A stretch of DNA of 11,968 nucleotides from a virus (Duplodnaviria > Heunggongvirae > Uroviricota > Caudoviricetes). The stretch lies in the IMG/VR virus record IMGVR_UViG_2617270939_000005; one strand, 5' to 3'. Shown here in pieces: positions 913 to 11,968 of this stretch. A model generated the notes under the pieces. The model was not told the origin of the DNA. It searched no databases and was given only the letters and a program-made list of their open reading frames with translations. A program made the translations under genes and the position numbers. The number at the start of each line of letters is the position of its first letter. Position 1 is the stretch's first letter.

Positions 913-1000
913 TTTGCTAACCCTATGAATTGTGAACCAAAATAAGTAATCGCGGTACTTATCCCGGTAGTTGGTAGCGGTAGATTACAAGGTAATTACC

Positions 1001-2221
1001 ATGCCAATCAAGAAGACTTCTTATCTTTATGCAAACAAAGATGGGATATTCATCTTTCAAATCTATATTCCGGTCTACATGCGCCACCTCTGGAACGGGC
1101 GGCGCTCGCTCAAGAAATCGACAGGCACACGGGACATCATGCAAGCTCGCATTTTCCGTGACCAATATTTATTAGAGTTCCGTAAGCTACAGCTCATGAT
1201 GAAACCGGATAACCCCATTACCCGGATTCATTCCGCTGTAACAGATCTTCACTTGCTGGCGGGGGTATCCAGCAGCATTACCACACCCGCAACTATTCCA
1301 GCAGAGCGGGGAAAACCAGCATCACCAAAATTGACAGATGTCAGTAAAGAATATGCAGAGCAATACAAAGATCGGCGCTCTTATTCCACGCTGAGTAAAT
1401 CAGTTCGCGCTGTATCGGCATTTACTAATTCAATAAAACGCCCAACCATTACAATAAATGGAATCGGGCGGCGGCTCGTCTCTGACTTTCTGGAAGCGAA
1501 CCAAGATAAGTTTTCCCGCCAGACGCTGCAAAACTGGTTAACCTGCTTAGGGACGCTGTATGACTTCGCCCGGCGTAAATATGACAATATCGCCCCTGAT
1601 AATCCCTTTCACGGCCACAATCTGGAAGCCCGCCAGACGAACGAAAGTTATCAACCTTTTGAACTACACCAGCTACAGGCATTAATAAAAGAGGCAGGTA
1701 GCGAGATACGAGACGTAATCATAATCGGTTTGTATTCCGGTATGCGTCTCGACGAAATCGCCAGCATCAAACGAGTTGAGATTATCAAAGTTGAAGGGGT
1801 ACGCTGCTTCTACGTCAGCAAATCTAAAACTAAAGCGGGTGTAAGGCACGTCCCCATACACTCGCTGTTAATCAGCATCGTTGATAAATACCTTGCGCAG
1901 AACAACGGTGAATACCTGCTCCCCCAATCGAACAAGATTAAACGTGCCGACGGTAAGCGTGGCCCGTGGTACTCGCAGGCATTTACACGGCTACGCCGTC
2001 GCGTGCTGTCAGCGGCTACAGATCGCCAATGCTTCCACTCCCTGCGTGGTCACTTTATTACTTGCTTAGACAGAGCAGGAGTACCAGAACAGCGCATAGG
2101 GGCAATAACCGGGCATACCGAACAAAAAGCTAAAACGGAAGCTTTCAGGACATATAGCAAGGGAGCAGGGATGAAAGAACTATGGGAGTATGTGGAGTTG
2201 GTCAGTTATCCGTGTTTATAA
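1001..2221 (+). CDS. int: Tyrosine site-specific integrase (phage-type), 406 aa from the ATG at 1001
   Basis: The track ORF 971..2221 starts at TTG; the ATG at 1001 is preceded by AAGG at 988-991. The C-terminal catalytic region carries the tyrosine-recombinase signature: GLYSGMRLDEI (Arg), SKSKTKAGVRHVPI (Lys), HSLRGHF (His-x-x-Arg), ITGHTE (His) and FRTYSKG (Tyr). Sits directly beside the tRNA-derived att repeat. Confidence 0.9.
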   Translation: MPIKKTSYLYANKDGIFIFQIYIPVYMRHLWNGRRSLKKSTGTRDIMQARIFRDQYLLEFRKLQLMMKPDNPITRIHSAVTDLHLLAGVSSSITTPATIPAERGKPASPKLTDVSKEYAEQYKDRRSYSTLSKSVRAVSAFTNSIKRPTITINGIGRRLVSDFLEANQDKFSRQTLQNWLTCLGTLYDFARRKYDNIAPDNPFHGHNLEARQTNESYQPFELHQLQALIKEAGSEIRDVIIIGLYSGMRLDEIASIKRVEIIKVEGVRCFYVSKSKTKAGVRHVPIHSLLISIVDKYLAQNNGEYLLPQSNKIKRADGKRGPWYSQAFTRLRRRVLSAATDRQCFHSLRGHFITCLDRAGVPEQRIGAITGHTEQKAKTEAFRTYSKGAGMKELWEYVELVSYPCL

Positions 2222-2223
2222 AA

Positions 2224-2247
2224 AAGGCGCTATAGCGCCTTTCTTTT
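2224..2247. terminator. Bidirectional rho-independent terminator between convergent genes
   Basis: AAAGGCGC-TATA-GCGCCTTT hairpin (core stem GGCGC/GCGCC at 2226-2230 and 2235-2239) flanked by AAAAA on the left and TTTCTTTT on the right. Lies between the integrase stop (2219-2221) and the stop of the convergent minus-strand gene (2246-2248). Confidence 0.6.
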
Positions 2248-2620
2248 AAACATCAAAGATGACATCACCATGATACGCGTTAAACTGCGGATTCCGCATG
2301 ATGGTGATCACTTGCTGAACTACCCACTTTGCACCGATATCAAGTTCATGCTCTATAGCGCACGGTATAGCAATACCAGATTTCTGACACTTGATAGTGA
2401 AGGAAAATCCCTCATCTTTGCCTAGAATTGTCTGCAAGTGTTGTCCAATGAAATTTGTAAAAATCACTCTCAACTCAGCTAACGTGATTGGAGGTTTATT
2501 ACGCGGATCATTAAGTCTATCAACAGCAAAATGAAATGACATCTTTAGCTTGGCTCTATCTTCTTCCAAGATATCGTTAATATCTGCAACTAAATCATCA
2601 ATCTGCTGTTGAGTTATCAT
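2246..2620 (-). CDS. Hypothetical protein, 124 aa, second gene of low-GC two-gene cassette
   Basis: ATG at 2618-2620 overlaps the upstream gene's TGA (ATGA overlap, translational coupling). Acidic protein with no motif I recognise. Sampled 60-nt blocks in the cassette give roughly 37-42% G+C, against ~50-53% in the neighbouring operon. Confidence 0.6.
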   Translation of the reverse strand: MITQQQIDDLVADINDILEEDRAKLKMSFHFAVDRLNDPRNKPPITLAELRVIFTNFIGQHLQTILGKDEGFSFTIKCQKSGIAIPCAIEHELDIGAKWVVQQVITIMRNPQFNAYHGDVIFDV

Positions 2621-2826
2621 ATGTGTGCAGCCGTGATCTCAGCTAATTTCTTGTTCAACTCTTCATCGTTTGAAGCTGTGATGGTGCCTACAAATTCAGT
2701 GCGTGATAAAGTACCAGCACGCACATCGAATTCGTAGTTGTCAAACGAATCAACGACGACAAACGCCTTGGTTGCTGGGTTAAAAAACGATGCACAATTT
2801 TGGTTTGTACGCATATCAAAGTTCAT
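2617..2826 (-). CDS. Hypothetical protein, 69 aa, first gene of low-GC two-gene cassette
   Basis: ATG at 2824-2826 preceded by a strong AGGAGG Shine-Dalgarno (reverse complement of CCTCCT at 2831-2836). Acidic small protein, no recognisable motif. Confidence 0.6.
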   Translation of the reverse strand: MNFDMRTNQNCASFFNPATKAFVVVDSFDNYEFDVRAGTLSRTEFVGTITASNDEELNKKLAEITAAHI

Positions 2827-3027
2827 ATTATCCTCCTACCCCTTCAAGGGAGATGTAGGAACGAAGTATTCTCAAGTTGAAGCTCAGTTTGGAGACATAT
2901 TAGGAAACTGTTTTATGCTCAGCCTACGCAATCTACGTCAATCCGTCAAGAATTGTTTTAAATATAGGCAAGTAACAAGGCAGCCACAACAACACATAAC
3001 CGAATGAAAATAAAAGAAATAATCTCA

Positions 3028-3465
3028 TCACGCATGTTGTCTTGGATAAATAACGCCCAACCCCTTGTATTGTCGGCGGTAGGCAGGTAGCATGCTTAAC
3101 ATGCTACCTCGTGAGAGTCCGCACAAATTTCCCACATAATAACCACCTTCCGCTGCATTGGCCGAACGATGAACCACAGCGCGCACACGTCCAGTTCGGT
3201 GACAGTGATCCAATACAGCAGACGCGAGGCGTAGCGGCTTAGCTGTCACCGCGCAGCGTCGGTATTGATAATTCCACAGGAAGACACGGACAGCGGCCAC
3301 ATCAGCGCGGCGCAACTCCAGCCGTCCTGAACCATTCAACAGGAAGTGATACACATCATCGAACGCAGCAGAATTTTTAATGCGTTCCGCTAGCGGCATG
3401 TTGCCGAGATATTCCAGATAGCCTCGCATCGCTTTTCTTAGTAGTTGGTCTGTCCGTGTAACCAT
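3028..3465 (-). CDS. Hypothetical protein, 145 aa, last gene of the structural-type operon
   Basis: ATG at 3463-3465 with GGAGG 9 nt upstream; overlaps the preceding gene by 28 nt. Function unknown. Confidence 0.55.
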   Translation of the reverse strand: MVTRTDQLLRKAMRGYLEYLGNMPLAERIKNSAAFDDVYHFLLNGSGRLELRRADVAAVRVFLWNYQYRRCAVTAKPLRLASAVLDHCHRTGRVRAVVHRSANAAEGGYYVGNLCGLSRGSMLSMLPAYRRQYKGLGVIYPRQHA

Positions 3466-3737
3466 GATTCAAAGCCTCCACTGTCAGATGCAGCCCGTTT
3501 GCAGGCTTCGTATTCTTCGCGCTGGCGTTGGCATACCAGAGCATAAAGCTCGGCGGCCATCGCATTAACACGTTCGTCACTGATACCATTGCGGCGCATC
3601 AGCCCCAGCAGCTTACGAAATTTAGCTTCAAGCTCAGGCTCTCCGGTATCCATTACCCACTGTTTCAGGTCAGCGAGTGCGCCAGTCATTGGTGGCGGCT
3701 CGATGTACCGCCACCTTAATTTAATCGTGGTTATCAT
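3438..3737 (-). CDS. Hypothetical protein, 99 aa (start revised to the first ATG)
   Basis: The track ORF 3438..3785 begins with TTG. The first ATG at 3735-3737 has GAGGA 8 nt upstream and gives MITTIKLRWRYIEPPP.... Overlaps the upstream gene's end (3721) by 17 nt. Confidence 0.5.
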   Translation of the reverse strand: MITTIKLRWRYIEPPPMTGALADLKQWVMDTGEPELEAKFRKLLGLMRRNGISDERVNAMAAELYALVCQRQREEYEACKRAASDSGGFESWLHGQTNY

Positions 3738-4146
3738 TTTCTTTATCCTCTCTGTAAGCCGGGTGCATTGCCCGGTATTGCTCAATGGTCAAACCCTCGC
3801 TGGCCGCTGCAAACCGTTCCTTTTGCTTACCCGCCAATCGCAAGGCGCTGTCTCTCCAGCAGAGCAGAAAGAAGATGGTCAGCACCTGCTTACTCAAGCC
3901 ATCCAGAAGATCACCAAGCCCTTGCTCCAGAAGACAGGCACGCCATGCAGCGGCGTGCTCAGTCATAGCACCTACTATCGGGACAGGTGCTCCGAGCATT
4001 GTCGCAAGCTGACTCATAACACTGTTAGCATCGCCCGGATGCAGCCGTGGAATAGTCATGCGGCCAGCCTGCGCCAACAGTTCAGCGTACCGCTGGCGGC
4101 GCGGGTCATCATCTGCCAGCGCTCTAATCGGCTTTTCATCAGCCAT
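3721..4146 (-). CDS. Hypothetical protein, 141 aa; possible small terminase subunit by position only
   Basis: ATG at 4144-4146 with GGAGG 9 nt upstream. Sits immediately downstream of the HNH endonuclease, the position usually held by terS in HK97-like packaging modules. No sequence motif confirms this; it is a context inference. Confidence 0.55.
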   Translation of the reverse strand: MADEKPIRALADDDPRRQRYAELLAQAGRMTIPRLHPGDANSVMSQLATMLGAPVPIVGAMTEHAAAWRACLLEQGLGDLLDGLSKQVLTIFFLLCWRDSALRLAGKQKERFAAASEGLTIEQYRAMHPAYREDKENDNHD

Positions 4147-4164
4147 TAATGGAACCTCCGAGGA

Positions 4165-4692
4165 TTAGGCAGCCTGCAATAAATCGGCTGGCGTTGACGG
4201 ATGGTATCTGGCTTTAGCTTTCAGGTACGCAGCACGCGCCGCCGCTTCGGTAGTGAATAAGCCGAGGTGATGGCGAACACCACCAACGCGAATGTAAGCC
4301 TCCCATCTGCCAGAGCAGGCATGGTGGCTATAACCCTTGGCTTTGCGGTAATTGTGCTGGTTCTCTTGTGGCGTAACCGTGCGGAGATTGATAAGGCGGT
4401 TGTCATCGCGTACCGCGTTGATATGGTCGATTTGCATCCCGGCAGGGATACCGTCATTAGCAATGATGAAGGCGACACGGTGGGCGTATAGCGCATGAGA
4501 TTTGCCATTGATGCGGACAGATACGCGCCTATATCCGGCGCTGTCCGTTACCGTGTCGGCCAGTTCCCCGGCTTTAGCGTAAATCCGCTTGTTGGCTCCG
4601 ATCCGGTCTACTGCATGGAACAGGCGGCCAGTCTTCGCATCGTACCGAAACAAAGAGCGCAACAGCTCCGGGGCATAAGCATCAATATTCAT
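4165..4692 (-). CDS. HNH endonuclease with AP2-type DNA-binding domain (phage packaging-associated HNH)
   Basis: HNH motif IDHINAVRDDNRLINLRTVTPQENQHN (His...Asn...Asn/His spacing typical of HNH_3) and a C-terminal AP2-like segment GRWEAYIRVGGVRHHLGLFTTEAAARAAY. ATG at 4690-4692 with AAGGGG upstream. Confidence 0.85.
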   Translation of the reverse strand: MNIDAYAPELLRSLFRYDAKTGRLFHAVDRIGANKRIYAKAGELADTVTDSAGYRRVSVRINGKSHALYAHRVAFIIANDGIPAGMQIDHINAVRDDNRLINLRTVTPQENQHNYRKAKGYSHHACSGRWEAYIRVGGVRHHLGLFTTEAAARAAYLKAKARYHPSTPADLLQAA

Positions 4693-4708
4693 GGCTCGGC
4701 CCCTTTTG

Positions 4709-5704
4709 TTATGCAGCTTGTCGGAAATTTATAACGCAGTCAGGGCGGCGCAGCCCAACATTGAACAGGCGATATGAGTCCATCACCATTGTCATTTCGC
4801 GTTCATCATCCCACTGGCGATTGATAACGCTCTGCGCTTCGACTGTCACAAGTACAGACGCAGGCCGGAACAGCGTCGCCCGTGTCAGCGCTTCCCCTGC
4901 GGTCACATCATAATCAGCGCCCAGTTCATGCGCGGTAATGGCTTCCTGCGGGTAACTGTTCAGCTCAATAACTCGCACCCCAGCGACATAGCCAACGCGA
5001 CGCCATGCGTAATCATTGCCACTATCCCGGCTGTAACGGACGTTCATCAACTTCTTATGTTCCATCAGGATGCTGAACCAAGCTGGGTCGATGAGAAGGC
5101 ACAGCTCCGCCACCGGAATATCTTTTTCAGTTAGGAATCGATTAACAGCAGCTTTAATAGCGTGAACCAGTTCGTTAGCCGCATCCTCTTCGCTCCCCGT
5201 TGTCAGGTCGAGCGAGACAACATTATCCGTCAGCGGGTTAAACGTTGGTTGCAACGTAGGCGGCGGTACAAAGTCAGTCGCTTTGATTAGCTGGATAGTG
5301 TGCGCTTCGTCGTAGAACTTTGCATGGGCTGTCCCCATGTTGCGGCTCAGCTCTGCGCGAAAGGTGGGCGCTGTCCAGTCGTCTTGATAGTCAATCGGGA
5401 TGCGGATATAGCTCAGCGTATCCACAGAGATAATCAGCTTGTCCGACTTAACGGCGGTAGGCTCCAGCGATTGCCCTGCGGTTCTGCCCTTCACCTCCAG
5501 ATCTCCGCTCAGGCGGTCTACACGATACTGATTACTGTTTTTCAGCGGCTTGTATGTGCTCAGCCCCTCGGCGAGAAACACGCTCTTTGCCTCAAGGCGG
5601 GTCTGAACGTCCCGGTCATACGCTTCAATGTGAATGTCGTTGTCAGCATCTACACCGCCCCAGTGCGGGCGGAATTGGTCAGGGGTATAAACATTGTCAG
5701 TCAT
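4709..5704 (-). CDS. Putative major capsid protein (lambda gpE-like family, tentative), 331 aa
   Basis: ATG at 5702-5704 with GGGAG 9 nt upstream. Size and two segments (LLIDPAWFSIL and the C-terminal W-DDEREMTMVMDS...RRPDCVINF) loosely resemble lambda E-type capsid proteins as I remember them. The resemblance is from memory and not verified by alignment. Confidence 0.5.
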   Translation of the reverse strand: MTDNVYTPDQFRPHWGGVDADNDIHIEAYDRDVQTRLEAKSVFLAEGLSTYKPLKNSNQYRVDRLSGDLEVKGRTAGQSLEPTAVKSDKLIISVDTLSYIRIPIDYQDDWTAPTFRAELSRNMGTAHAKFYDEAHTIQLIKATDFVPPPTLQPTFNPLTDNVVSLDLTTGSEEDAANELVHAIKAAVNRFLTEKDIPVAELCLLIDPAWFSILMEHKKLMNVRYSRDSGNDYAWRRVGYVAGVRVIELNSYPQEAITAHELGADYDVTAGEALTRATLFRPASVLVTVEAQSVINRQWDDEREMTMVMDSYRLFNVGLRRPDCVINFRQAA

Positions 5705-5772
5705 AGAAATAGCTCCCGCGCCAGCGTTAGCCAGCGCGATTTATGGAAAAGGGGAAAAGAGAATGGGATGAA

Positions 5773-6120
5773 TCAGGCAGCAGCTTTTTCAGCCGCGATC
5801 TCAAGAATCAGGCCGATAAGCGCGAAGGCAGGCCAATGGGGATTAAGCTCGTGCAGGTGCGCAACGCCCCCACCAAAAGCATCGCGCATATCAGCACCAG
5901 AGATGCCCGCGCGTTTGGCCGCCCGGCGCAGCAATCGCAGCTCGGAGCCGGGAACATACGCCGAGGGCATACGCACGCCGAAGCGTGAGGCGAGCCGCCG
6001 CCAGTGCGCTTCGTCAGCAAAGTCCTGCTTAAGCTGGCTGGCGTTGGCTTTCCAGTGTTCAATCCTCGCGCTACGGGCAGCCCTAGCCGCTGCCACGTTT
6101 TCAGGTGTCAGTAAGGTCAT
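5773..6120 (-). CDS. Hypothetical protein, 115 aa
   Basis: ATG at 6118-6120 and stop at 5773-5775. Arg/Ala-rich, predicted helical, with only a weak ribosome-binding site. Lies in high-GC DNA where antisense ORFs are common, but it fills the gap between two well-supported genes on the same strand. Confidence 0.5.
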   Translation of the reverse strand: MTLLTPENVAAARAARSARIEHWKANASQLKQDFADEAHWRRLASRFGVRMPSAYVPGSELRLLRRAAKRAGISGADMRDAFGGGVAHLHELNPHWPAFALIGLILEIAAEKAAA

Positions 6121-6279
6121 TGTCAGATCTCAATGCAAAGTGGGTTTATGTGTGGTGTTTGAGAGGTAATTTCGCGTTTTACAGGTGCAGGTATACGAAT
6201 GTACATCTGGCGATGTACAACGCGATTCAGGCTCTAAAACGTAAGGTTAAGACGTGGGGAAGACAGGACAGGCGATTGC

Positions 6280-7806
6280 TTAACGGCCAGCGCGTTTGCC
6301 AGCGGAGCGCTGCGCAACCAGAGCGCGGTATTGATCGTCGTACTGGCGATGGCCGGGGCCATACCCTGATTGCTGCGCCCACTGCGAAAGCTGATCATAC
6401 GCTGCAATAAACTCAGCATGAGACATACCAACAGGTTGCGAGGCAGGCTGGCCGTATGGGTTCCCCTGTGATGGGACATAACCAGTCGCAGTGCCTGCGA
6501 CCATACGCTCTTGCAGATAATGAACCGCCCGCTGCATCTGCGCAGGGTCGCCAGACATAACCATCCGTTCAAGGGTTGATTGCGTCCCGGCGTCGAGCGT
6601 GCCAGCGTACTGCAACATCGCGTCAACTGTCCCCTGCCCTAGCTGGCTTTCGACAGACTGGTGAAACTGCCCCATCAGCCCATGAAGTTCAGGAGTCAAC
6701 TCAACAGTAGTGCCATCCTGTAATTGCAGCGTGTCGCCCACTTGCGCAGCAACATCAATCTGCTGGTCTTGCTGGTTGGCAAAGTTACTTTCGTTCCAGC
6801 TTTGATTAATGTTCGCTGGCTGCGTTTTCAGGAAATCAGCATCAGGTGTTGTCTGGTCGAATCTGCTAGCGCCGTTGTCAGCGCCTACAGGTGCGGCCAT
6901 GTACGGCGATTGCTGCGGCGCAGTATCAGCGCCCGAAAGGTACGGATTAACATTCTGGTCAGCCAGCACATCACTACCACGGGAGAAGATCGCATCAGCA
7001 ACAGACAACTGCCCCGGCCTCCACTCCAGCCCATCGGGTGGCAACAGGCTAACGCGTGCGTTTCGGTCACAGCGAACCAGCGGGCGAAACTCATAAGAGG
7101 CTGTATTCAGTGACGGCACAGACGGCGACACTGCCAAGCCGTTTGGGTCACAATGATGATTTGTACTGTTAAATTTATCCTCGGTAGGTTTCGACTCTCC
7201 ACACCACAATTGACGAAACTCCGCTGAGTCCCCGTAGCGTTTGAAATCTGAATTGCGCATCGCTTCCAGTTTATTCATGCCCCTGTTGATGCGGTGTATA
7301 GTCTTCTCATCACAAATCAGGAACTCGCGGCAGGCTTTGAGAAAAGCATTCTGCCCGGTTGTCGATGCCGAAACGGCGTGCTCGCGCGGTTTCAATGCGG
7401 CATCATCTACGCGAACACCGGGAAAATCAGGCGGCAGCGGGTCAGCATACCGAGCAGGCTTCTTGTTGAGCCACATTTCTATCTCAGCGCGTCGGCAATG
7501 AATTGCGTCACCGGGCTGGATGACTTGCCGCAACCCCGTGTCAGAGCGCTGTTTTTGCTTCTTCGGTTGAACACCATGCAGCGCTCGCCATTCCCGCAGG
7601 GTCATAGCGGAGCCATCAGCATTGTAATAAAACTCTTCGGTCTTCGTGTTGTATGCCGCCTTAACGGGTTTATGCTTTATCGGGCATATCTTGGAACGCC
7701 GAATAACAATCCCGTCAGCGACCATTTGCTGTACATCTGCGTTTGCGGTATTGAGCGGGTCAGCGTCGGCAGCCTGCGCAAGCAAACGGCGTAGGTTCGT
7801 TGGCAT
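6280..7806 (-). CDS. Hypothetical protein, 508 aa: N-terminal region with HTH-like segments, C-terminal half Gln/Gly/Ala-rich low complexity
   Basis: ATG at 7804-7806 with GGAG 8 nt upstream; first gene of the minus-strand operon. Segments AMTLREWRALHGV and QVIQPGDAIHCRRAEIEMWL look like DNA-binding (AlpA/HTH-like) motifs. The C-terminal ~200 residues are Q/G/A/P-rich. No Walker A or protease motif seen. Confidence 0.7.
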   Translation of the reverse strand: MPTNLRRLLAQAADADPLNTANADVQQMVADGIVIRRSKICPIKHKPVKAAYNTKTEEFYYNADGSAMTLREWRALHGVQPKKQKQRSDTGLRQVIQPGDAIHCRRAEIEMWLNKKPARYADPLPPDFPGVRVDDAALKPREHAVSASTTGQNAFLKACREFLICDEKTIHRINRGMNKLEAMRNSDFKRYGDSAEFRQLWCGESKPTEDKFNSTNHHCDPNGLAVSPSVPSLNTASYEFRPLVRCDRNARVSLLPPDGLEWRPGQLSVADAIFSRGSDVLADQNVNPYLSGADTAPQQSPYMAAPVGADNGASRFDQTTPDADFLKTQPANINQSWNESNFANQQDQQIDVAAQVGDTLQLQDGTTVELTPELHGLMGQFHQSVESQLGQGTVDAMLQYAGTLDAGTQSTLERMVMSGDPAQMQRAVHYLQERMVAGTATGYVPSQGNPYGQPASQPVGMSHAEFIAAYDQLSQWAQQSGYGPGHRQYDDQYRALVAQRSAGKRAGR

Positions 7807-8629: not shown

Positions 8630-8700
8630 CTGTAGGCCATCCATCACCCACAGCCCAGTAACGGCCAGTGCTGGCATCTCATCAGACTGTAGGTCATCAC
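8630..8700. repeat. Imperfect direct repeat CTGTAGG(C/T)CATC...CAC at the 3' end of the recombinase gene
   Basis: CTGTAGGCCATCCATCAC at 8630-8647 and CTGTAGGTCATCAC at 8687-8700; the second copy overlaps the recombinase stop codon at 8697-8699. Significance uncertain. Confidence 0.35.
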
Positions 8701-9329
8701 TCTGTAACGCTGGCGGACAGCTCACGTTTGATACGGTAGAACGTTGCCCGGCTTATCCCGGCAGCTTTCATGATGTGCTCTGGTTTATTCCCAACGGTAA
8801 GCATAGCGCGGACAGTTTCACGGGCGCTCTCATCCTTAGACTTCCCGTTATATTTCCCCTCGGCTTTGGCACGCTTGATGCCCTGCGCTTGGCGTGCTCT
8901 GCGTGTCTCGTAGTCCACTCGTGCCATCGTAGCGAGGATATCAATCAGCATTGCGTTAACAGCTCTCAGGATGCCCTCTGTAAGCTCTGACGCCGTATCG
9001 TTCAGTAGTTGCCATGAGGTTGGCAGGTCAACGGCAACGATCACCAGTCCCTTATCCTGAATCCTCTGTTTCAGTGTCGCCCATTCCTTTTGCGTAAGGC
9101 GGCTTAGCCTGTCGATGCTCTCGACAAGCAAGACCTCTCCGGCCTGCGCATCATCCAGCAAGCGCATTAGTTCAGGACGCGCCAGCCTCGCACCGCTGGC
9201 GTTCTCGATGTACTCCGCCCGTACAGGCCAGCCCCGATCACTGGCGAACTCTCGCAGCAAGCCCAGCGCCCGGTCTGCGTGTTGCTCTGATGTACTGGCG
9301 CGGCAATAGATAAGCGCATTGTGTGCCAT
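8697..9329 (-). CDS. Small serine recombinase (resolvase/invertase family), 210 aa
   Basis: N-terminal catalytic motif YCRASTSEQ (the Y-x-R-x-S-T-x-x-Q serine recombinase signature), the VESIDRLSR motif and a C-terminal HTH (AAGISRATFYRIKRE). ATG at 9327-9329 with GGGGGA upstream. Confidence 0.85.
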   Translation of the reverse strand: MAHNALIYCRASTSEQHADRALGLLREFASDRGWPVRAEYIENASGARLARPELMRLLDDAQAGEVLLVESIDRLSRLTQKEWATLKQRIQDKGLVIVAVDLPTSWQLLNDTASELTEGILRAVNAMLIDILATMARVDYETRRARQAQGIKRAKAEGKYNGKSKDESARETVRAMLTVGNKPEHIMKAAGISRATFYRIKRELSASVTE

Positions 9330-10046
9330 GCTTCCCCCTAAGTCTCAATGAAATATCACAGCAAGACCTATAAGAGATCACATCAATAATGTGTAGTCAA
9401 TAGAGTTTTATAGATAGTCAAATGAGACAGTGTGTCTATGTCTTTATCAGGTATACCCGAAAGAGACTGGCACCGCCCCACAGCAGCATTCCCCGGCACA
9501 TCCAGCGAACACAGCGTAGAGCGCACGCAGCAGATCAGCACGGCACCGCCACGATCTCGAAATCACAAAGGCATTGAATCACACATTGGAAGCACAGAAC
9601 GCAGCACAGAGCGATACAGATCGTTTTAGAGGGATGTACAGATACACAGTGAAAGGCAGATGATCGCAGCACTCGTCCCACACGGTTATTCAGCAACAGC
9701 AATCAGCCAGCATCTCGCTCAGTAGCACGCTCCTGTAATGCTTGTCTCGGATGAGCAAAATCTTAGGGTTTCTCAGCGACCCCTGACGCGCGGGCACGCA
9801 CATGCACACGGGGGCGCGGGCGAGCTATAGAGTTGAGGGAGGGGCAACCATAAGCGTGCAATTTTCAAGCTGGGACTTTTAACAGTGGGATTGTGGGGCT
9901 GTTTTGCATTCAGAGAGTGAGGCTGTGGGGGAGCCCTCCTTGAACCAAATAATGCGAAACTGATCATTCTTCCACGTAGCTTAGGCCACTTTGCATGGAT
10001 AATTAGCACCAAACACAGCAGCCAGTTTAAGAGAAATGCGCGACAT

Positions 10047-10265
10047 CTACCGTCTGCGTTTACCCCAGCGCTGCATTATGGCTCTGTGTGCTTCATCCGC
10101 TGACCATTCAATAGGTACAACAACGTGTACAGGCATTTCATCGCCAGAGGGGGCACCACGTAAATGGACTCTATACCCTAGTTTATTAAGTTCTACCTCG
10201 GACATCGGTGATATAACCTCGCCGCTATGGCTGCCGCCAACAAACTCAGCTTTAAAATCCAACAT
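10047..10265 (-). CDS. Hypothetical protein, 72 aa (doubtful)
   Basis: ATG at 10263-10265 lies directly downstream of a G9 run on the minus strand (C9 at 10267-10275 on plus) that could serve as a Shine-Dalgarno-like element. Its composition is more protein-like than the overlapping plus-strand ORF 10036..10359 (Ser/Thr/Pro-rich). No homology recognised. Confidence 0.35.
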   Translation of the reverse strand: MLDFKAEFVGGSHSGEVISPMSEVELNKLGYRVHLRGAPSGDEMPVHVVVPIEWSADEAHRAIMQRWGKRRR

Positions 10266-10266
10266 G

Positions 10267-10275
10267 CCCCCCCCC
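10267..10275. repeat. Homopolymeric C9 tract (G9 on minus strand)
   Basis: Nine consecutive C read directly at 10267-10275, immediately 5' of the 72-aa minus-strand ORF start and inside the alternative plus-strand ORF. Confidence 0.9.
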
Positions 10276-10355
10276 TACACACTAACAAGAATCATTGAAG
10301 GTGTATCACCCAGCAACTACGCTGGGCAGAACATCACCTCGGACTATCAATCAAC

Positions 10356-10814
10356 TTAGTATCGCTTTGTGTCTCGTAGTATTACAGACAGTAACCACCA
10401 CCATTGGCGTTTGATCCAACAAACATCACTGAACATCTTGCCGTCAGATGTTTTGATATAAACCCCGCCACGATGATGCACTTTGTTGTGATGAGCCTTA
10501 TTTATGAATGGCACGTTCAAGACCATTTCGTCTCGTGCTTTCAATCTTTTTGGCAGCATCGGTGTGATCATGTTCTCGTCCGAATATTCGTCGGATAACA
10601 TTCTAAGGCGTCCACTGGCTGTTACCACACCGGCTGCACTCAACGTTACATCGTGTGCGCTTATGTTCGAAACGTATATCCTGTCCTCGTGCTGATCACA
10701 TCCGAGATAAAGCCTTAGCGATGTTCTGGATTTTAGTAATTGAAATACGGACAAAGCAAAACCCGCCCACGCCGCGATCCCTGTCCAGTTATCTGTTTGG
10801 GTGATCCAAGTCAT
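10356..10814 (-). CDS. Hypothetical single-pass membrane protein, ~152 aa
   Basis: The track ORF starts with TTG at 10815-10817; the ATG at 10812-10814 overlaps the upstream gene's TGA (TGATG), indicating coupling. The N-terminal stretch WTGIAAWAGFALSVFQLL is a probable transmembrane helix, followed by a soluble domain with a His/Lys-rich segment (KAHHNKVHHRGG). Confidence 0.6.
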   Translation of the reverse strand: MTWITQTDNWTGIAAWAGFALSVFQLLKSRTSLRLYLGCDQHEDRIYVSNISAHDVTLSAAGVVTASGRLRMLSDEYSDENMITPMLPKRLKARDEMVLNVPFINKAHHNKVHHRGGVYIKTSDGKMFSDVCWIKRQWWWLLSVILRDTKRY

Positions 10815-11041
10815 CAAGGCTGCATCCCCTTCGACATAAGATACTTAACGATCCCTTCTCGTTGCCTATTACTCAGCTGAAAACATTTGTCTAGTTGAGA
10901 TAAAACCTGCTCGACATCATCTGCCAAGATGGCACTAGCTGCACGAGCGGGGAGATCTCCCTGAATTTTGATAGTGAAATACCCTGAAGATATTGATAGC
11001 TTCAAAAAACAACCTGCTGAGAACTCGTAACTCTCGCTCAT
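10814..11041 (-). CDS. Hypothetical protein, 75 aa, first gene of the minus-strand operon
   Basis: ATG at 11039-11041 with AGAGG about 6 nt upstream; stop overlaps the start of the membrane protein gene. No motif recognised. Confidence 0.55.
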   Translation of the reverse strand: MSESYEFSAGCFLKLSISSGYFTIKIQGDLPARAASAILADDVEQVLSQLDKCFQLSNRQREGIVKYLMSKGMQP

Positions 11042-11113
11042 AACCGCCTCTGTTGCCAGTTTTTCAGTAAACTGACAGTATATTCCTGAACCTTTATTAC
11101 ATCACGCGCACAC

Positions 11114-11125
11114 AAAAAAAAAAAA
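11114..11125. repeat. Homopolymeric A12 tract in a divergent intergenic region
   Basis: Twelve consecutive A read directly at 11114-11125, between the divergently oriented 75-aa gene (start 11041) and 259-aa gene (start 11189). Confidence 0.9.
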
Positions 11126-11188
11126 TGACCGACTCAGTTCGCAAATTTCTGGATAATCTATCCATACAATAATTATCAAGGATAAGTT

Positions 11189-11968
11189 ATGTCATCAGAT
11201 AACTTCGTGACATTTTGGCTTGCTAAAGTAGATCGGCCCTATTTTCTTGAACCTCACGAATTTTATGTTTCGGAAGCAAGACGGAGACTTTTGTCTCAGT
11301 TTGGGGATCTGACCCAAGAGGCGGAGGAGCGAGAGAAACAGTTTCTGGAGTATACCGCTGAGCATTTCAATCCTGATTTTGACGACCCAATGGCAGCCTA
11401 TGAGCAAGCATATGAGGAGGGTGTAAACTACGTCTGGTCACTTATTGAAATGCAAGAAACTGTTCTTTTGGCAGTAACTGCGGGTATGTATCACCAGTTC
11501 GATAAAAAGTTACGAGAAAAAACGATCAGAGAATTGTCTCATTGGTGTGATAAAGAGATCATTACACCAATGGTTTGGGATTTAAATTTTGATCAACTGT
11601 TGAAACTGCTCGAGTGGATCGGTCTCAAGATAGATGAAACTGATTATGGCGATAAGCTCAAAGCGTGCGCATTAGTCGTAAATGTGTACAAACATGGTGA
11701 TGGAAATTCTCACCGCCTCCTATCATCAACTCATCCAGAATATTACCCTCATCCTACTGGTATATGCGGCAGACATATCAATCCTACTCATGATGATCTG
11801 CATGTAACAGAAGAACAGTTTGTTGAATTTGCTGATGCAATAACAACATTTTGGAAAGCAATACCAGAATACTGCTATTACTCCGAACTGTCGGATGAGC
11901 CAGAGTGGTTAATTAAGCTTGTAAAAAAGAGCGAAAAGAAGTTAAGAAAAGGAAATACAAGGCCATAA
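11189..11968 (+). CDS. Hypothetical protein, 259 aa, AT-rich gene; contains an R-x5-H segment (HRLLSSTH) reminiscent of HEPN motifs
   Basis: ATG at 11189 with AAGGA 6 nt upstream; the TAA stop coincides with the window end (11966-11968). A sampled 60-nt block gives ~38% G+C. The HEPN suggestion rests on a single short motif and is speculative. Confidence 0.7.
   Translation: MSSDNFVTFWLAKVDRPYFLEPHEFYVSEARRRLLSQFGDLTQEAEEREKQFLEYTAEHFNPDFDDPMAAYEQAYEEGVNYVWSLIEMQETVLLAVTAGMYHQFDKKLREKTIRELSHWCDKEIITPMVWDLNFDQLLKLLEWIGLKIDETDYGDKLKACALVVNVYKHGDGNSHRLLSSTHPEYYPHPTGICGRHINPTHDDLHVTEEQFVEFADAITTFWKAIPEYCYYSELSDEPEWLIKLVKKSEKKLRKGNTRP

Follow-up and report, generated by a model that had tools for sequence, protein, structure and literature searches.

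A KreTA toxin-antitoxin cassette as exchangeable cargo next to the integrase gene of a phage-related island

The toxin-antitoxin system KreTA was described in 2025 (Odai et al., Sci Adv 2025;11:eadz8560; PMC12487901; preprint, bioRxiv 10.1101/2025.05.14.653371). In that work the protein WP_000632671.1 was cloned as kreT and WP_001008346.1 as kreA; KreT was toxic to Escherichia coli BW25113 and was neutralised in trans by KreA (Fig. 6C-D of PMC12487901). KreT selectively abolished the incorporation of 3H-methionine, indicating a block in translation, and in an AF2 model of the heterodimer the predicted active site of KreT was covered by KreA, the fold of which was likened to that of the Tri(Tu) immunity protein (PMC12487901). 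No relatives of KreT were identifiable by sequence in the viral database (VAD) of that study. A second point of comparison is RegB of phage T4, a cyclising RNase in which H48 is one of two proposed catalytic histidines (PMC3014915) and which is by itself toxic in E. coli (PMC7291057). A third is the PBECR (phage-BECR) group, which comprises predicted RNase domains of polyvalent proteins (Iyer et al. 2017, PMC5512222).

The cassette analysed here lies in a stretch of viral DNA of 11,968 nucleotides (IMG/VR record IMGVR_UViG_2617270939_000005), referred to in its full length as the window. Positions 2222-3027 of the window were 100% identical in DNA sequence to the E. coli genome NZ_LR536431.1, where the locus is annotated with a 124-aa CDS (WP_000632671.1) and a 69-aa CDS (WP_001008346.1). 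Since these are the two products that were tested experimentally (PMC12487901), the cassette is identified as KreTA. A probability of roughly 0.88 is given to the reading of the pair as KreTA, a type II toxin-antitoxin system that a phage-related island carries as exchangeable cargo in the slot beside its integrase gene. KreTA is already known and experimentally validated, and no new kind of system is described here: the genes, their order (kreA upstream), the prophage, integrase and capsid neighbourhood and the RegB-like fold are the same as published, with no difference in the genes themselves. The KreT domain family, the restriction of KreA to one clade, the variability of the slot and an orphan KreA in a jumbo phage, all presented below, were not found in the published description (PMC12487901). 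The first-pass annotation of this DNA, made from the letters alone, had likened the pair to a toxin-antitoxin module, and the published toxicity and neutralisation assays of KreA and KreT prove it correct; that annotation had recognised neither protein, and the system had in fact been published already.

Both genes are encoded on the minus strand. The upstream gene, kreA (orf69; 2617..2826), is an ORF with a match to phrog_14630 that encodes a 69-aa acidic antitoxin (pI 4.64), and the downstream gene, kreT (orf124; 2246..2620), encodes a 124-aa toxin (pI 5.22) with a RegB/RelE-like (BECR) fold. The kreA stop codon and the kreT start codon are joined in an ATGA overlap on the minus strand (2617..2620), an arrangement that points to translational coupling; two small acidic proteins with a 4-nt overlap had been proposed, and both properties were borne out. 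The same was true of the strong AGGAGG site noted on the first gene, a Shine-Dalgarno sequence (2832..2837; minus strand, read 2837..2832) located 5 nt 5' of the kreA ATG. Its purine-rich core, GGAGG, occurs at the same position in loci L009 and L005 and is one base off in L004. No ribosome-binding site comparable to this AGGAGG was found in front of the kreT start, which fits the translational coupling of kreT.

The integrase gene and kreT converge, and the 24 nt between their stop codons are taken up by a GC-rich hairpin (2220..2245, either strand). Its folding energy was -15.1 kcal/mol on the minus strand (z -3.9) and -12.0 kcal/mol on the plus strand (z -4.0) when compared to shuffled sequences, confirming the hairpin behind the earlier suggestion of a bidirectional terminator, which it is likely to be; a simple terminator scan did not flag it. 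On the other side of the cassette there is an upstream intergenic region of 201 bp with 37.8% G+C (2827..3027, minus strand), within which a promoter-like element (2921..2949, minus strand) consists of a -35 hexamer TTGACG (2949..2944), a 17-nt spacer and a -10 hexamer TAGGCT (2926..2921). This element, a weak match to consensus that was not flagged by a consensus promoter scan, is considered a putative promoter, and the layout TTGAC(N)-17-TAG(G/C)CT aligns across the window, L009 and the Proteus locus L005. An imperfect direct repeat (GATTGACGTAG / GATTGCGTAG) overlaps the spacer of the element. No convincing operator-like palindrome was found upstream of kreA. A hairpin that would mask the kreA ribosome-binding site was considered and rejected, as its stability was that of shuffled sequence (z 0.13). 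Measured over the full features, the G+C content was 39.9% for the cassette and 39.4% for the cassette together with its upstream region, compared with 54.7% for the neighbouring operon (3028-7806) and 47.6% for the integrase gene, so that the low G+C claimed for the cassette relative to its flanks holds.

Sequence searches placed both proteins in phage protein families of unknown function. The orf69 product matched phrog_14630 (E 3.6e-39) and the orf124 product matched phrog_14518 (E 4.1e-65), in each case over near full length. Neither protein was matched in Pfam or NCBIfam (KreT was compared with Pfam at E <= 0.1) or in PADLOC-DB 2.0 at E <= 0.1, a 2023 release that predates the description of KreTA, and a blastn comparison of the cassette with phage genomes gave no match. 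Of 5,426 complete E. coli genomes, NZ_LR536431.1 alone contained the cassette DNA. Draft assemblies commonly encode the identical proteins, which were seen on 779 and 862 contigs respectively and are listed in roughly 1,460 and 1,640 blocks of an assembly index, and the whole window is identical to one contig of GCA_000704025.1. By sequence, KreA has no recognisable DNA-binding domain of the RHH, Phd/YefM, HTH or AbrB type, in which it differs from the antitoxins of RelE/ParE systems; classical autoregulation is therefore unsupported. A KreA profile gave only chance-level matches to PDB sequences.

The association of the two genes was assessed in 157 loci with a KreT-like ORF, mostly from viral contigs. 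A kreA-like gene was located directly upstream in all 39 loci that carried a stand-alone KreT relative of 124-127 aa. The two genes overlapped or abutted in 32 of these 39, and were separated by a gap of 12 nt or less in the other three distinct loci; the overlap was mostly 4 nt, sometimes 7 or 11 nt, and one pair abutted. No orf69-like gene was found anywhere in the remaining 118 loci, which belong to the wider KreT clade and in which the domain is mostly part of larger proteins of up to 1,537 aa, with a few stand-alone forms. KreA thus accompanies only the stand-alone KreT clade. These results also bear on the suggestion that the AT-rich DNA separating the integrase gene from the operon is junk and that both ORFs in it are decayed frames or products of chance, a suggestion for which the absence of Pfam, NCBIfam and PADLOC matches to either protein might be cited. 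It is considered vanishingly improbable, given full-length PHROG matches, exact proteins on 779 and 862 contigs, a pairing that is conserved down to approximately 33-50% identity and kept in 39 other loci, a confidently predicted KreT fold and a published phenotype.

The KreT domain itself is widespread, with 359 relatives among cluster representatives and at least 395 and at least 537 confirmed KreT-like loci in two IMG/VR scans. Among the best 150 of the 359 relatives, 45 had the domain as a stand-alone protein, 44 at the N-terminus, 34 at the C-terminus and 19 internally. Its fusion partners were cytidylyltransferase-like domains (15 proteins), DUF5824 (13), Zeta_toxin (6) and AAA_33 (5), and further included DUF5661, DUF3008, InPase, HNH and a cyclic-phosphodiesterase domain. 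One apparent relative, P0052, a LapA/BapA adhesin of 3,359 aa matched in eight short stretches (E 2.2e-8), was set aside as a probable repeat or composition artefact. The cultured carriers of the domain are large lytic myoviruses, namely the Sinorhizobium phiM12 group, Methylophilales phage Melnitz and phages of Paraglaciecola and Flavobacterium.

The wider family resembles the PBECR domains in being a phage-borne BECR fold with solo and multi-domain forms, in the conservation of a His close to the N-terminal helices and of a Thr where strand 4 ends, and in the fusion partners InPase, Zeta-toxin-like kinase and 2H/CPD. None of 40 KreT-family members matched the Pfam models PBECR1-5 or MuF_C at E <= 5; a weak MuF_C match over the KreT domain of protein P0063 (E 0.0062) was below the curated cut-off. 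The family differs from PBECR in its setting, since in two cultured, T4-like phages the KreT-like gene is located in the replication or early region and not in a virion module: phiM12 gp159 (L197 2540-4348) and Melnitz gp31 (L198 3908-4357) both lie a few genes upstream of a DNA primase gene. Delivery by injection is therefore unsupported, and the interpretation of the wider family as virion-packaged 'polyvalent' cargo was not adopted. To judge from gene order in phiM12 and Melnitz, the position of these genes appears more RegB-like than that expected of 'injected cargo'.

The fold of KreT was predicted with AF2. A model based on an alignment of 40 sequences was of high confidence (pLDDT 96.7, pTM 0.89); an earlier model built from five close sequences was moderate (pLDDT 71) and had the same top fold match. 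A Foldseek search with the KreT model returned a RegB homolog (E 2.7e-6), and in the ranking of fold matches T4 RegB was best, followed by the RelE-type toxins RelE, HigB and YafQ. The model has the elements of the RegB fold, including the extra N-terminal helix, two helices and a four-stranded sheet. Eight residues, H30, R35, R40, N41, E49, T106, R109 and F113, were invariant in 40 diverse family members; H30 lies in the helix 29-35 and T106 two residues past the strand 97-104.

Sequence comparison, in contrast, did not connect KreT with either group. KreT and RegB (PDB 2HX6) are 13% identical, with no significant sequence similarity; the hhalign comparison of the KreT-family and RegB profiles was not significant (probability 1.8%, E 0.028), and it is this lone alignment that places H30 and R35 of KreT on H48 and R52 of RegB. 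No residue invariant in the KreT family corresponds to the second RegB position, H68, which is unconserved among RegB homologs too. KreT profiles gave only chance-level matches to PDB sequences and did not recover RegB 2HX6, and the RelE, ParE, HigB, YafQ and YoeB profiles of Pfam matched neither KreT (E <= 0.1) nor 40 of its relatives (E <= 5). There are differences in form as well: RegB is a basic protein of 153 aa, an early gene product of lytic phages that has no known antitoxin, whereas KreT is a mildly acidic protein of 124 aa partnered with KreA, and compared with RelE, HigB, YafQ, YoeB and ParE it has an additional N-terminal helix and strand. KreT is linked to RegB and RelE by fold only, as far as the models suggest.

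The fold does not on its own prove RNase activity, because the ParE toxins have the same fold and are gyrase poisons. The published labelling result does point to translation as the process on which KreT acts, and the fold and pairing results obtained here are in agreement with that report (PMC12487901). In the proposed mechanism both genes would be transcribed from a promoter located approximately 95-125 nt upstream of kreA, and kreT, having no ribosome-binding site of its own, would be translated by re-initiation at the ATGA overlap. The acidic KreA is predicted to bind KreT and to cover its active site, as in the published AF2 dimer. If KreA were lost or titrated, free KreT would cut RNA, probably mRNA and possibly on the ribosome, in a metal-independent cyclising reaction like that of RegB, and translation would stop. 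KreT could also stop translation without cutting mRNA, by cleavage of tRNA or rRNA or by binding to the ribosome, on the model of the colicin D/E5-type and CdiA-CT BECR toxins, which cleave tRNA or rRNA. This alternative is judged rather unlikely, as RegB and the mRNA interferases RelE, HigB and YafQ, which depend on the ribosome, rank first among the fold matches, and the extra N-terminal helix of KreT is common specifically to RegB. Action on mRNA in the manner of RegB is the preferred mechanism.

The slot that holds the cassette is bordered on the left by a tyrosine integrase gene (971..2221, plus strand; Pfam Phage_integrase, E 5.9e-10; phrog_1) and on the right by an endonuclease VII-like gene (3028..3465, minus strand; Endonuclease_7, E 3e-6; phrog_423, E 2.9e-15), the last gene of the capsid/HNH operon. 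The backbone of the island was detected in 59 of 5,426 complete E. coli genomes, only one of which carried KreTA. In strain 5735 (L193 2290-2293), whose integrase gene has 87% DNA identity to that of the window, the slot was empty, the integrase and endonuclease VII genes lying 2 bp apart. It was occupied by a 92-aa gene and a DUF3606 gene in NCTC11023 (L194 2230-2894), by a YafO-family toxin in NZ_CM194533.1 (L195 2679-3503) and, in E2348/69 (L196 2346-3376), by an opposite-strand ORF of 300 aa; the G+C content of all of these fillings was 40-44%. The survey of related elements suggested by the first-pass annotation therefore found the same slot empty or with alternative cargo, and the integrase-proximal slot is a truly variable cargo site. 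Because the content of the slot varies between sister islands, the cargo module was defined as window positions 2222-3027.

The YafO-family cargo of NZ_CM194533.1 is the nearest parallel to KreTA within this slot. The two have in common the slot, the strand, a promoter-bearing stretch of approximately 100 bp and a low G+C content, and both encode a translation-targeting toxin of a type II system; they differ in that the proteins belong to unrelated families and no antitoxin is annotated upstream of the YafO-family gene in NZ_CM194533.1. Window positions 2925-3027 were approximately 90% identical to the YafO island (L195 3392-3503). This stretch includes most of the promoter-like element, which therefore belongs to the edge of the slot and is not peculiar to KreTA; the slot may supply a common promoter to different cargo. 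In consequence, the idea that the cassette has its own upstream region of about 200 bp was only partly upheld: a region of 201 bp is present, but positions 2925-3027 are common to a sister island with other cargo.

KreTA was found in at least five kinds of carrier. The first is the island type of the window, with a phrog_267 capsid gene, HNH and endonuclease VII genes. The second, island L009, carries a capsid gene of the lambda-E type together with another integrase, 62% identical as a protein, and is related to the window at 81% DNA identity over positions 1516-2940 only. A Yersinia ruckeri island with a P4-like primase and an integrase is the third, and the fourth is a bare chromosomal insertion in Proteus hauseri, downstream of deoA-deoB-deoD. 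The fifth consists of temperate Uetakevirus phages of E. coli and Klebsiella, in which KreTA appears, from ORF translations, to adjoin an antirepressor-like gene. The G+C content of the cassette was 40% in E. coli, 35% in Yersinia and 30% in Proteus, below that of the flanks every time. Together with a G+C content 15 points under that of the operon and the variable slot, the range of carriers supports the proposal that the cassette is independently acquired cargo. That the carrier of the window is a true phage satellite is only plausible.

Further features of the island were noted outside the slot. A 508-aa ORF (6280-7806; junction near 6962-6965) is an in-frame fusion that resulted from a 2,898-bp deletion: when compared to the intact island of NZ_LR536431.1, positions L001 19745-22642 are absent from the window. 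The deletion joins the N-terminal part of a DEAD/DEAH helicase to a 228-aa protein and has removed several small genes, so the island in the window looks replication-defective. Different deletions in the same region were seen in other assemblies. The far end of the island (8697-11968) carries a serine recombinase gene (8697-9329) and ORFs without a family match of 72 aa (10047-10265), 153 aa (10356-10817), 75 aa (10814-11041) and 259 aa (11189-11968; 40.6% G+C); it may be a second cargo region, and in the intact locus it adjoins a tRNA-Gly gene. Insertion-sequence remnants flank the integrase side, where the window has a C-terminal fragment of a DDE_Tnp_1 (IS5-like) transposase (103-327) and the complete-genome copy has IS1A and a truncated amino-acid transporter gene (L001 13078-13775).

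For the island, KreTA may serve in element stabilisation, in abortive infection or in interference with helper or competitor phages. The main function of the pair might instead lie in regulating the development of the phage or island, not in addiction or defence, with KreT as a RegB-like RNase that reshapes host or phage mRNA pools during induction or infection and KreA as a timing brake. RegB acts in this way in T4, KreT-like domains occur in the early or replication regions of the lytic phages phiM12 and Melnitz, and a KreA-like gene is absent from the 118 loci of the wider clade, all of which would suit such a function. It is nevertheless considered quite unlikely for this cassette, which comes with a promoter-like element and a terminator of its own, sits in a slot that sister islands leave empty or fill with unrelated cargo, is found as a bare chromosomal insertion in Proteus hauseri and has been kept in an island whose replication module is deleted. 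The slot, the cassette's own signals, the bare insertion and its persistence after the deletion fit autonomous accessory cargo better than a life-cycle gene.

A KreA homolog was also found outside the paired loci, in the lytic jumbo phage Kaldavass of Erwinia (366 kb). The gene (L026 3001-3213, corresponding to PQ464595.1 320271-320483) encodes a protein (XPP60391.1) with 58% identity to KreA. Its neighbours are PhoH-like and nucleotidyltransferase genes, and genes for Nudix and Sir2 proteins occur farther upstream. Searches of the Kaldavass genome with the KreT of the window and with a member of the broad clade detected no KreT-like domain. The homolog may be a counter-antitoxin or antitoxin mimic. 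Phage-encoded antitoxin mimicry has a precedent in T4, whose Dmd protein disarms RnlA and LsoA.

Autonomous cargo of this kind could be more than an addiction cassette. As a tentative reading, considered possible and on the doubtful side when its parts are taken jointly, KreTA would be an anti-phage or inter-element conflict module. In islands and temperate phages, an invading or helper phage would perturb KreA and so free the RegB-like RNase. The KreA homolog of Kaldavass would, by analogy with Dmd, be a phage-encoded mimic that disarms KreTA. The hundreds of KreT-like domains that occur without KreA in large lytic phages, joined to nucleotidyltransferase, P-loop kinase, cyclic-phosphodiesterase and pyrophosphatase domains, would represent an ancestral offensive form, and such RNA-cutting and RNA-end-modifying enzymes would act in host shut-off or in an attack on the RNA-based immunity of the host.

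The present analysis indicates that a reading of raw sequence alone can rightly flag a genuine toxin-antitoxin module. As the system had already been validated, the residual interest lies in the target and role of KreT, the domain family of lytic phages, the orphan KreA and the slot variants. The natural series of islands in which the slot is empty or carries KreTA or YafO provides a handle on the role of KreTA, and the counter-antitoxin candidate of Kaldavass and the antitoxin-free domain family are further handles on KreT biology. The antitoxin-free KreT-like domains of lytic phages may show the function that the domain had before it became a toxin.
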